Shown: positions 2,454 to 6,576 of the stretch, one piece after another | Position numbering within the stretch: position 1 is the stretch's first letter | Layout: every line of letters starts with the position of its first letter | Source: a virus | Length of the DNA: 64,000 nt | IMG/VR virus record: IMGVR_UViG_3300012944_000024 | Span: 1-64,000 of that record | Reading direction: 5' to 3' (one strand) | Translations under genes and position numbers: made by a program | The notes under the pieces: model-generated | What the model was told of the DNA's origin: nothing | The model's database searches: none | What the model saw: the letters and a program-made list of their open reading frames with translations, nothing else

Positions 2454-2857
2454 TCGTCAGGCGGGCGGTTGCGGGCGTGGCCGGCGAGATCGATGGGTGC
2501 GGCCGCAACCACATCCTCAACGAAGTCCTCGGGGTTCGCTAGCTGCTCGCCCAGCGCGGGCCGCCACCGCCAGTCGGGGTCCTCGAGATCGGCAACCAGC
2601 TCGGGCGGCAGGCGCCGCCAGTTCGCGTGCGGATCGCGCGCCGTACTCTCCCACCCCCGCACGTAGCCGGCGCGGTAGCAGGTCTCGGCGAGCCGTGTGC
2701 CAAACTCCAGCACCATCGCGCGCGTCAGCCGGTGGGGGTTGGCGTTGAGGAACTCGATCACCAGGAGGCGAAGGCGCGCGGGTGGGGTGGGCCCTTCGTG
2801 GAACGTCCCGAACGCCTTCTCGAACGCGTCGCGTAGGAAGCGGGCGAACGGGGTCAC
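2450..2857 (-). CDS. Hypothetical protein
   Basis: GTG start overlapping the methyltransferase stop ([14 protein letters not shown]...). Confidence 0.75.
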   Translation of the reverse strand: MTPFARFLRDAFEKAFGTFHEGPTPPARLRLLVIEFLNANPHRLTRAMVLEFGTRLAETCYRAGYVRGWESTARDPHANWRRLPPELVADLEDPDWRWRPALGEQLANPEDFVEDVVAAAPIDLAGHARNRPPDE

Positions 2858-4845
2858 TTCGAGTGCCGGATGATCTGACCCTTGGCGATCCGCGCCATCG
2901 CCCACGCCGCGTGCTTCGGTACGAGCTCGATCCCCACCACCTCATCCCAGCCCGCTTGCAGCGCACCAATGATTTCACTTCCGGCTCCGGAAAACGGTAC
3001 GAGCAGGCGCCTCGGCTTGCCGTCCGCGCGCGGCGGCGGGAGGAGCATGCGGGCGAAGTAGCGACAGAGGTCGATCGGCTTGAGCGTGCTGTGTCCGTTC
3101 TTCGCGCGCCCTTGGCGCGAACCGTCCCGCATGGCACCAACGCCATGCGGGACGGTCTCGAAATTCTCGAGCCCCCGGTCGCGCTCCTCGCGCGAGACCT
3201 TTGATGTGAAGAAGAATCGGCTCGCACCTCCTCGGTCGCCGCGAGCCGTGTCGGTGCTGTCGACGCCTCCGAACATCCCCCCGGGATAGTCGGGTCGGTG
3301 CCTCCCGCCCCCCGACATCCCCGGCCGGTCCCCACTCTGCAAGTCGAGCAGGCGCACCGGGCAGCCCTCGACGCACTCGTACGCGTCGATCGTCTCCTTC
3401 CCATTGACTCCGTAGCCGGCGTCGGGCGTCCCCACCGGGTACGTCCCACGACCATGCATCCCATCCAGCGCGCCTCGGTTCTTGACCCCGTTGCGCTTGA
3501 CCGCGGTCCCCGTCTTGACCACGCGCTCCCCCACCCTCACGCAATCGGGTGCGTGCGATAGCACCACGTTCGCCGGCCACCTCCCCTTCACCTTCTTGCC
3601 CGCGTAGCCGGTGACGTTCTTGGGAGCGATCGAGGCTGGACTCGAACCATCGTTGCCCGCGGGAGCGTTGAACCGTTCAACGCTCCCGATGCGGCTCGCC
3701 TCGATGTCGAGCCCACCCACCCCATGGGTCACCGCGTTGTCCGCGATCGTCCCGCGATGCGGCTTGCTCACCAGCAGCAGGGGCTCGTAGTCAGGGGCTA
3801 AGTCCGAGCTTGCGACCTCTGATGTAACAAGAGCGACCGCAGAAGACGCGAGGGTGAACTCGAGTCCAGCAGCGGCGACGGCGAACGATGCGACCGCAAG
3901 CGAGGCACTCGGCGTCATGCCACGTCCGCTCGTCGCGACCTCGATGATGAGTTCTGGCGTGATCTTCGACAGTGAGGAGTTCAAGGTTCTCAATGCGGTT
4001 GTCAGACTTGATGCCGTTTCGATGGTGAACGTGCTCTCTCGTCTCAAGATCTCGTTCAAGGTGTCGAGCCATGACGACACGATGCTCAAGCTCGTAGGCA
4101 CCGTCGAATCGGACCGCGACGTAGCCATCACTCCGAACAAATCGTCCGGTGAACTGCACTGTTGCACGGCATCCCATAGAACAGAACCGAGCGGTGCGAG
4201 CGCGTCTCGACTTGACGACGAAAGCCTGTCCGCAATTTTCGCAAGTGAGCTCAATTGGCATGCAACTTCCGTCAGCTTGTGAGCCAACGATACCACGATC
4301 CCCTTCAGATCGAGCGGCTTCTGGACCATCTCGAGTATTTCCCACGCCGGCTTGAGCGCTGTCCCCTGCCCATCCCACCGCCTCGCCTCTTCTGAGATCG
4401 CCGCGCCCTTGTCGGTCATCCCATAGTGAGGACCACCCAACGCGGGACTCTGACTCACCACGGAGGTGGCGCGGTCGCGCCACCTCCCCCGCTTCTTGTC
4501 GAGCTCCTTCGCGATGTCGAGCGACTTGGGCCACCCGCTCGCGTAGAGCCACATGCAGACGTCGCACGGCAAAAAGCCCGCGTCCTCCACGTTGACCGCC
4601 ATCCGATGGAACGTCCGCGTGCCGCCGAAGAAGAACGCGAACGCCCCCGGCCTCAGGACCCGCAGCACCTCGACGAACGCGTTGACGCTCGGGACGTCGT
4701 AGTCCCACTTGACCCCGCCGCTGCCGTGCATGAACTCGAGACCGTAGGGCGGGTCGGCGAACGCCGCGTCGAAGCTCTCCGGCTCCATCTCGCGCAGCAC
4801 CCGGCGCACGTCCCCGACGACGATCTCGTACGGGCGACCGCTCAC
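2854..4845 (-). CDS. DNA methyltransferase (beta-class N6A/N4C) with ~180-aa in-frame insertion
   Basis: FADPPYGL catalytic motif, [50 protein letters not shown] motif; GTGA overlap with ParB-like gene. Confidence 0.9.
3791..4261 (-). CDS. HNH endonuclease nested in an alternative frame of the methyltransferase
   Basis: [10 protein letters not shown]...FCSMGC, DGYV...EHRVVM...[19 protein letters not shown], second CxxC...FCGRSC; GGAAG upstream of ATG. Confidence 0.9.
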
Positions 4846-5510
4846 TTGCGCCGCTTGCCGCCGAGCAGCTCGAGCACCACGTCGCCCGTCCCCCGCTTGC
4901 TCGTGCGCGCCTTCTCCTCGAGCTTCTCCTTCACCGCGTCGCGCGTCTTCTTGTCCTTGAACTCGAGCCGCAGGGTCGCGGTCCCCACGATCGTCTCGGT
5001 CTCCTCGGTGATCCTGGGGGGCTCGGAGAACTTCATGTACCGCGCGTAGTCGTCCTCCTCGAACCCGAGCATCTCCTTCTCCTCGGGCAGCACCGGGGAG
5101 GTGTGGGCGATGTCCTCGAGCATCTCGCCGACGAGCTTCGCGATGAACTCTCCCTCCACGTTGTTGAGGGCGATGTTCAAGATCTTCGCCTCCCGATCGA
5201 TGAGGTCGAGCACCACGCACGGCAGCCGGGGGGTCGCGACGTTGTCCTCGATGCAGATCTCCCGCACCGCCTTGACCCGCTGGTGTCCCCCCACGATCAC
5301 CATCGGACCGTGCGCCTTGCTGAAGCGCTGGATGACGAGGTTCTCGAGAAACCCATTCTTCCGGATCCCCTGCTTGAGCGCGTCGAACTTGTAGGGCGAG
5401 ATCGAACGCGGATTGTACGCGGCAGGTTGCAGCTCTTGCACCGCCATCATCACCACTGATCGAACCTCGAACGGTTGCAGCACCTGCGCGACTGTCTTTG
5501 ATCGGTTCAT
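4842..5510 (-). CDS. ParB/Srx N-terminal domain protein
   Basis: LQPAAYNPR...[12 protein letters not shown]...[10 protein letters not shown] (ParB box I/II-like). Confidence 0.85.
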
Positions 5511-5989
5511 ATGTGCACCCATCGAACCCTCGTAACGATCTTGGAGATCGCCCCTTGTCGCACGCCAAACCGTTCGGCAAGCGTCTTACGTGACTCCCCG
5601 GCCTTAGCAGCAGCGCGGATCTCCAACACCTGTTCGTCGGTCAGCTTGGCGAGATGATGCCCAACCCCTGCCTTGCTATGGCGTCGACCCTTCTTCATCG
5701 AATCGTGGACGTTGTCCTTCTGCGTTCCGACGAAGAGATGTTCGGGGTTCACGCACCGCGGAGTATCGCAAGTGTGCAGGACAAGTAACCCAGCCGGCAC
5801 TGGACCCCTATGCATCCACCACGACACCACGTGCGCGCGATTCGACCTGCTGCGCTTCGTACCCGGGATGAATGCGTAGAAGAAACCGTACCCGTCCTTG
5901 TCCAGACCCCCAGTCCAGAGCCAGCACCCGTCACTCTTCTCTACGTGCGTGAAAAACCGGATCCTCGGTTCGATTGTTCTGGGCGCCAC
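5507..5989 (-). CDS. HNH endonuclease with C-terminal HTH
   Basis: CWLWTG..DKDGYG, AHVVSW, VLHTCDTPRCVNPEHL..GTQKDN, KLTDEQVLEIR. Confidence 0.92.
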   Translation of the reverse strand: MAPRTIEPRIRFFTHVEKSDGCWLWTGGLDKDGYGFFYAFIPGTKRSRSNRAHVVSWWMHRGPVPAGLLVLHTCDTPRCVNPEHLFVGTQKDNVHDSMKKGRRHSKAGVGHHLAKLTDEQVLEIRAAAKAGESRKTLAERFGVRQGAISKIVTRVRWVHI

Positions 5990-6006
5990 GCCTCCCCCTA
6001 TGCCCC

Positions 6007-6022
6007 GGGAACCCGGGTTCCC
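6007..6022. repeat. 16-bp palindrome copy 2
   Basis: Exact; intergenic after ruvC; 2 nt from GGCATAG box. Confidence 0.98.
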
Positions 6023-6027
6023 ACCAG

Positions 6028-6576
6028 CTAGGCGAGCGAGAGGAACGGCAGACCGAGCTCCGAGAGCCCCGCGTTGGCCACGACGAACGCGTCGACCTGG
6101 TCGCCGTCGGCGAACGGGGCACCATGGTCCCAGATCGCCTGATGGGTCACACGCTTCACGTCTTCGCGTGGGAGCTTGCCCAGGATCAGCTTGCGCGCGC
6201 TCGACGCCACCACGGGGCGCAACGTGCGCCCGTAGGTGAATAGCTCGACCCGGCAGACTCCCCCTAGCTCCGCGAGCCTGGTCACGCTGCTCGAGTGCTT
6301 GGAGAAGGCATACCCCTCTACGAAGGTGTGCTGGGCGCGCTTCTCGAGGACGAAGTTGCGCGCCCACCCGGAGATCTTGATCAAGCGCCGGTACTGCCAG
6401 GCGAGAGCGTCAACCCCCGTCTTGACCAGCGCGTCGTCGCCCCCGACGTACGTTTCGAATCGTAATGTCAGCCAGTCGCCCAGCTCCCAACCTTGCGGGA
6501 TGAAGCAGGCGGCGGGCGCAGTGAGCGAGAGGTCGAACCCCACGATCCCGCCGAGCGAACGGACGCGCCTACCCAT
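6028..6576 (-). CDS. ruvC: RuvC-like Holliday junction resolvase
   Basis: VGFDLSLT, FVEGY, LAELGGV, DQVDAF acidic motifs. Confidence 0.85.
   Translation of the reverse strand: MGRRVRSLGGIVGFDLSLTAPAACFIPQGWELGDWLTLRFETYVGGDDALVKTGVDALAWQYRRLIKISGWARNFVLEKRAQHTFVEGYAFSKHSSSVTRLAELGGVCRVELFTYGRTLRPVVASSARKLILGKLPREDVKRVTHQAIWDHGAPFADGDQVDAFVVANAGLSELGLPFLSLA

Follow-up and report, generated by a model that had tools for sequence, protein, structure and literature searches.

A ShiLan-type HNH endonuclease gene overprinted in the stop-free frame of a viral DNA methyltransferase is probably read through without removal

A DNA methyltransferase (methylase) gene on the minus strand of an uncultured virus contains an insert in which a complete HNH endonuclease gene is encoded in another frame, while the methylase frame remains open across it. 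The gene is located in positions 1 to 64,000 of the IMG/VR record IMGVR_UViG_3300012944_000024, and this whole stretch of 64,000 nucleotides (nt) is referred to below as the window. The arrangement had been noticed from the letters of the window alone (the original prediction) and was followed up by comparison with insert-free methylases and with relatives of the endonuclease. The features that make up the locus are located at the following window positions.

2854..4845, minus strand: probable beta-class (N6/N4) DNA methyltransferase open reading frame (ORF), 663 amino acids (aa), open through the insert, with the start taken from the homologue alignment
~3787..4341, minus strand: ShiLan-type insert of 555 nt, methylase aa 169-353 (185 aa), delimited by alignment to insert-free homologues and by guanine plus cytosine content (GC)
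4315..4347, minus strand: motif copy 1 (11 aa, aa 167-177), at the start of the insert
4266..4270, minus strand: GGAAG, a weak Shine-Dalgarno-like site ending 4 nt before the HNH ATG
3791..4261, minus strand: HNH endonuclease ORF, 156 aa plus TGA, in methylase frame +2, from the ATG at 4261 to the TGA at 3791-3793
3760..3792, minus strand: motif copy 2 (11 aa, aa 352-362), the copy that is aligned to the native strand in homologues lacking the insert

The GTG at 4845 was identified as the true methylase start by alignment with homologues, and the frame was free of stops from 5580 to 2854 on the minus strand according to both the ORF list and the sequence. The protein has DPPY in its N-terminal part and PFSGAGSE in its C-terminal part, which in the alignment gives the beta-class order DPPY ... 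FxGxG, and the window exteins retain all of the conserved motifs (DPPY, FPKS, GTALKP, NID, RWP.N, GGASRFF, HPT.KP and FxGxG). The homologues P0004 and P0006 (59-64% identity) have the Pfam domain N6_N4_Mtase (PF01555), and an AlphaFold model of the methylase N half resembles TTHA0409, CcrM, M1.HpyAVI and M.MboIIA.

The edges of the insert were fixed against seven insert-free homologues (P0002-P0007 and P0013, 50-68% identity), which read GTALKPAW/EPISLCCKPY (a slash marks the insertion point here and below), while in the window 185 aa follow GTALKPAW. The boundaries obtained from this alignment were aa 169-353, or ~3787-4341, with the exact edge being ambiguous because the strand motif recurs where the insert opens. 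The original description of a methylase ORF (2854-4845) running without a stop across a lower-GC insert of ~550 bp was borne out, as the insert measured 555 nt with a GC of 0.57 versus 0.68 in the flanks, and the GC profile fell from ~0.67-0.70 outside to 0.555-0.60 over the insert. Read in the methylase frame, the insert is low-complexity, poorly ordered and rich in Ser, Thr, Leu and Ala, and in the full-length AlphaFold model it was placed as low-confidence helices outside the normal methylase core.

The hidden ORF proved to be the complete 156-aa zinc-finger/HNH protein that had been proposed, with a match to the Pfam profile HNH_3 (PF13392) at an E value of 2e-10 and 40.5 bits against a cut-off of 24.8. 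The HNH core is flanked by two four-cysteine zinc fingers (CxxC...CxxxC), one N-terminal and one C-terminal, and the catalytic and Cys residues were invariant among 20 relatives, the invariant set being H60, H79, H80, N88, N92, H101 and eight Cys. No PDB chain matched the HNH sequence at E<=0.01. The HNH stop overlaps the P-D codons that open motif copy 2, and ~80 nt of the insert lie outside the HNH ORF. No Rfam family, group I and group II introns included, was found in window positions 2500-6000 at E<=1, and 20 related loci gave no Rfam match at the gathering threshold. The 663-aa protein had no Hint or intein match in Pfam, and the insert ends in Y with E as the next residue, as opposed to the terminal Asn and the C, S or T at +1 of an intein, which agrees with the earlier remark that intein termini are absent.

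The element is a divergent homologue (44% aa identity) of the published ShiLan domain, which was described as an enigmatic, horizontally moving insertion of 202 aa in actinophage methylases (Gosselin et al. 2023, Genes 14:288, PMC9957025) and was subsequently recognised to be an HNH in another frame than the host gene, accompanied by an 11-aa repeat and predicted to form a loop (Arsenault, Gosselin and Gogarten 2025, Genes 16:178, PMC11855218). The latter study reported no intron or intein signature in the domain and a negative MFannot/RNAweasel search. The arrangement, the duplication and the loop hypothesis are therefore already in print, and the novelty attached to them by the original prediction was overrated. 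The window and ShiLan share the methylase family, the insertion site (after ALKP and before xxEP....KP), an HNH in the third frame of the host gene, a stop-free host frame, the 11-aa repeat, a homologous two-zinc-finger HNH and the lack of intron and intein signatures. They differ in host, which is an uncultured GC-rich 98-kb virus with PolB, a RecA-like protein and DnaB for the window and a temperate mycobacteriophage for ShiLan, in insert length (185 versus 202 aa), and in the HNH start and stop (ATG behind GGAAG and TGA in the window, GTG and TAA in ShiLan).

Pacc40 gp60 (PMC11855218) resembles the window in having an out-of-frame endonuclease-like ORF in a phage methylase with an open frame and, compared by the description in that paper only, differs in methylase family, in insertion site and in having an unrelated ORF. 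The homing endonucleases of inteins and group I introns are likewise aimed at conserved motifs in conserved genes, are patchily distributed and have their flanks co-converted, whereas the window element is without Hint blocks or a ribozyme and, judging from the stop avoidance described below, its 185 residues are probably kept in the product. Free-standing homing endonucleases split host genes (genes in pieces), as does mobE in nrdA of phage Aeh1. These are like the window in that a homing endonuclease gene is located in a host gene without an intron or intein, with the locus L026 described below as a split counterpart, and unlike it in that the window host gene is unsplit, with no stop and restart, and the endonuclease is overprinted on a read-through frame.

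Published ShiLan-type cases are all GC-rich (PMC9957025, PMC11855218), where open alternative frames are cheap, and the loop hypothesis was thus without statistical support. Eighty-eight loci with HNH relatives were gathered from viral and genome collections and sorted by whether methylase halves flank the HNH. Over the extent of the HNH match, the methylase frame was free of stops in 28/28 embedded loci, which covered a GC range of 0.28-0.67 and included the low-GC loci L030 (0.28), L023 (0.36), L017 (0.39), L027 (0.41) and L016 (0.43). The third frame of the embedded loci contained 2-18 stops, with 16-18 at GC 0.28-0.43. Stops were present in the corresponding frame of 62/63 free-standing relatives, at a median density of 4.1 per 100 codons, and the difference in stop-free frames between embedded and free-standing loci was significant (Fisher p 1.3e-22).

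A recoding null, in which each HNH protein was recoded according to the codons used in the methylase that flanks it, gave 1.5-12 expected stops per locus where 0 were observed (combined p 3e-29, 26 loci), and for the window alone gave 3.4 expected methylase-frame stops and P(0)=0.02. Recoding was used instead of a within-gene synonymous shuffle of the HNH codons (window P(0)=0.82), which has little power as a null since stop-prone codons are already depleted from the HNH gene. By this sequence comparison with relatives, chance is excluded as the cause of the open frame. Stop avoidance in the methylase frame implies that the insert is translated in that frame, as splicing or bypass of the insert would give no reason to avoid stops, and the comparative data therefore support read-through over splicing or bypass. 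Frequent methylase-frame stops in homologous inserts would have spoken against the original prediction; with 0/28 it was not refuted, and splicing-free dual coding with a tolerated loop is the version of it that the embedded relatives favour.

Of the coordinates and descriptions in the original prediction, all were upheld but one: the claim that the HNH gene has its own ribosome binding site held only in part, since GGAAG is located 4 nt upstream of the ATG and is weak, while relatives have GGAGG. In most related loci, including those of the mycobacteriophages Pollywog and Mantra, GGAGG precedes the HNH ATG or GTG by 5-9 nt (for example L001:2066-2084 and L006:2485-2503), and the site reads Leu-Glu-(Ala/Asp/Gly) in the methylase frame. 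In 13 loci the HNH start is preceded, at a distance of 0-15 codons, by a stop in the HNH frame, so that a long methylase-HNH frameshift fusion was rejected for these 13 relatives. Internal initiation led by a Shine-Dalgarno site would be the simplest reading of HNH expression from these sequences. This differs from PMC11855218, in which a ribosome binding site was not detectable for the hidden HNH and leaderless initiation was proposed.

Both motif copies are examples of the strand motif E-x6-KP, and they bracket the insert with the HNH stop at the start of the second copy, as first noted. The repeat was found in 24/27 embedded loci examined (window included), with copy 1 of L030 being visible but missed by the pattern. 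Copy 1 and copy 2 were more alike within loci than between loci (BLOSUM 31.6 versus 21.1, permutation p 2e-5), and the same-codon fraction of identical residues was 0.36 within loci versus 0.35 between, with 17/33 nt shared by the window copies. Protein-level co-variation without codon sharing indicates that the match is kept at the protein level, and the same-codon fractions led us to reject a recent origin of the repeat by DNA duplication or gene conversion. The near-invariant Pro of the family is kept by copy 2 and often lost from copy 1. In the full-length AlphaFold model, made with a mixed alignment, copy 2 formed the core strand E352-360 (pLDDT, the predicted local distance difference test score, ~76-82) and copy 1 was disordered, a placement that is biased because insert-free sequences align to copy 2. 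When the N half alone was modelled with an N-half alignment, copy 1 formed a strand (E165-175), with block-mean pLDDT values of 70 for residues 161-170 and 93 for residues 171-180. As a lead from these models, either copy might be able to fill the core strand slot.

Several relatives featured other arrangements. L026 (2349-5988) is a split form in which an N-half ORF (2349-2837) stops just after copy 1 and is followed by a free-standing HNH_3 gene (2878-3507), an MT-A70 methylase (3677-4432), an unknown ORF and a C-half ORF (5404-5988) that begins at copy 2 (MKVVTLARKP). Another ORF resembling the C half (5814-6494) also has a strand of this kind at its beginning and runs off the end of the locus. 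L018 (315-5534), from a 289-kb viral contig, has two tandem methylase N-half ORFs that end directly past the motif. The second of these (905-2815) has intein-like ends (CLSEDTEILT ... VFVTGN/S) without a Hint match in Pfam and holds, in another frame, a 351-aa zinc-finger/HNH_3 ORF (1350-2405). A free-standing HNH (2791-3495) comes next, and then a full methylase (3801-5534) whose motif copies are only 9 residues apart, a spacing that is possibly the scar of HNH loss.

In L027 (189-1697) a truncated HNH relative (residues 1-116) is located upstream of a single GTSLKPANEPICVARKP motif without duplication; its methylase frame is open at GC 0.41, and the locus gives this methylase family a second site of insertion. 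L019 (3001-3550) has an internal stop in the HNH frame and an open methylase frame, and looks like a decaying endonuclease in a host gene that is still translated. In L007 (1947-3500), Mycobacterium phage MKC-IRE-02, an HNH_3 ORF (2501-2860, E 4e-10) is antisense within an annotated 517-aa methyltransferase coding sequence.

The nearest methylase relatives of the window (61-68% identity) are without the insert, and the nearest HNH, that of L008, is 65% identical although the L008 methylase is only 41% identical. By tblastn, the window HNH shared 43.6-45.9% identity, across 92% of the protein, with the HNHs of ShiLan, Pollywog, Filuzino, Murica, Mantra and others (43.6% with ShiLan and 44.2% with Pollywog), and its identity to an HNH of Cylindrospermopsis phage Cr-LKS3 was 55%. 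The mycobacteriophage and Cr-LKS3 HNHs are all located inside annotated methylases in the same relative frame as in the window, the frame offset is the same in the window and L001-L006, and the same HNH family occurs in the same relative frame in a cyanophage, mycobacteriophages and many uncultured viruses and metagenome-assembled genomes (MAGs). The insertion site ALKP/xxEP....KP was common to the window, the comparison of Murica with SirDuracell, and 24 loci. Murica matched the insert-free SirDuracell at 98% identity over the first 376 nt, diverged from it through the insert and matched it at 77% downstream, a pattern resembling a co-conversion tract. The discordant similarity of insert and exteins and the lower insert GC would fit horizontal transfer and homing.

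The explanation that we favour, with a probability of roughly 80%, is that a ShiLan-type mobile HNH element is overprinted in the +2 frame of the methylase and read through without removal, which is also the reading reached in PMC9957025 and PMC11855218. It draws on the observed anatomy and homology, the stop avoidance, the lack of known intron and intein signatures and the conservation of Shine-Dalgarno sites in relatives. An HNH homing-endonuclease gene would have inserted into the conserved strand motif (ALKPxx/EP....KP) of a phage beta-class methylase, with the element supplying a second copy of the interrupted strand. Ribosomes starting at the methylase GTG would translate 185 extra codons to give the 663-aa methylase, in which the extra loop would be a poorly ordered excursion between the catalytic half and the target-recognition/S-adenosylmethionine half, and selection on HNH codon choice would hold the methylase frame stop-free. 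The HNH would be made separately from the same mRNA by internal initiation at its own ATG behind the Shine-Dalgarno-like site. It would presumably cut insert-free alleles at the motif-coding DNA, and repair would then copy the element in along with flanking methylase sequence.

Several points weigh against this explanation. The whole 663-aa protein scored below threshold for N6_N4_Mtase (PF01555), with 19.6 bits versus a cut-off of 26.7, the AlphaFold confidence of the insert was low, the placement of copy 2 in the core carries the alignment bias mentioned above, and the window's own Shine-Dalgarno sequence (GGAAG) is weak. With P=0.02 for the window alone, the statistical case rests on the relatives, which are not fully independent. 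Stop avoidance means that translation through the insert matters and not that the product methylates DNA; the 663-aa read-through product, methylase activity with the loop, cleavage by the HNH and homing are what we infer.

The alternative that survives best, and which we nevertheless regard as improbable, is that the methylase consists of two associating pieces, an N half through copy 1 and a C half from copy 2, with the read-through peptide being only a tether or proteolytically clipped, so that each half keeps its own junction strand. L026 is genuinely split at these points, the N-half ORFs of L018 end directly after the motif, both copies are under lineage-matched protein-level selection, and AlphaFold gave copy 1 as a confident strand in the N half alone and copy 2 in the full protein, all of which would be consistent with two pieces. 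However, the embedded form has neither a stop after copy 1 nor a conserved start at copy 2, which makes a single chain the default, and halves made separately would not require the entire insert to be kept free of stops. The protein showed neither a protease site nor a processing domain.

It is less likely still that the methylase is a dispensable relic inactivated by the insertion, with its frame open by chance in a GC-rich phage. Long stop-free alternative frames are frequent in GC-rich DNA, as the HNH frame is itself open for 305 aa and the methylase frame is open upstream to 5580, and the methylase is non-essential in mycobacteriophages (PMC11855218). Against a relic are the P(0 stops) of 0.02 for the window and the open frame of 28/28 embedded relatives down to GC 0.28 where free-standing relatives are not open, and the exteins keep every conserved methylase motif. 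To our knowledge, ribosomal bypass of more than 500 nt has no precedent, and bypass of the gene-60 type has a stop at the take-off site. Least probable of all is removal of the insert by an unrecognised self-splicing or host-processed RNA element, or bypass between the motif copies, as the original prediction had also entertained: the motif at both ends is superficially like intron exon-mimicry or take-off and landing sites and novel ribozymes would escape Rfam, but Rfam was empty for the window and the 20 relatives, MFannot/RNAweasel was negative as well (PMC11855218), only ~80 nt of the insert are free of the HNH ORF, the copies share amino acids and not codons (17/33 nt in the window), and stop avoidance would have no reason.

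A more speculative proposal, which we consider possible and would not yet expect to hold, concerns the duplicated strand. It may be an adaptation that replaces splicing, in which a mimic of the interrupted beta strand, brought by the element, gives each half a complete junction strand, the enzyme folds (or assembles, where it is truly split) despite a foreign loop of 185 residues, and both copies are matched to the host by protein-level selection. If so, this would be a self-splinting route for a homing endonuclease into a conserved motif without an intron or intein, and the embedded form, the split form (L026) and the possible HNH-less scar (L018) would be stages of one life cycle.

Two further genes are located upstream of the methylase.

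4842..5522, minus strand: ParB_N-like ORF, whose stop overlaps the methylase GTG
about 5507..6100 (also delimited as 5507..6367), minus strand: free-standing HNH_3 / His-Me endonuclease gene identified by Pfam, directly upstream of the ParB_N-methylase pair

The GTGA overlap at 4842-4845 on the minus strand suggests translational coupling of the ParB-like protein and the methylase, an apparent coupling unlike the situation in ShiLan. ParB_N and methylase are separate genes here, compared to the common ParB-methylase fusion. The upstream HNH_3 gene had no significant BLASTP match to the embedded HNH and was rejected as its paralogous source; an HNH gene is also located directly upstream of the methylase genes of Pollywog and Mantra. 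The parent record is that of a 98,407-base uncultured virus encoding PolB, a RecA-like protein, DnaB and a Mu-F-like protein, and its PolB had only ~21-26% matches, to haloarchaeal viruses and cyanophages.

What is new here, in comparison with the published ShiLan work, is the stop-avoidance statistics across GC, the Shine-Dalgarno conservation, the co-variation of the motif copies and the split and scar variants, an advance that is incremental and computational. The stop statistics give the published loop hypothesis the support it previously lacked, and Shine-Dalgarno-led internal initiation would provide a simple route to HNH expression. Gene callers annotate the long methylase ORF only and overlook the nuclease. 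The element is no mycobacteriophage curiosity, as it is present in uncultured viruses and MAGs at GC 0.28-0.67 with the host frame always purged of stops. On the usual view, a homing endonuclease survives within an essential motif only by means of an intron, an intein or a split gene, and ShiLan-type elements would represent a fourth way, that of overprinting on a read-through frame.

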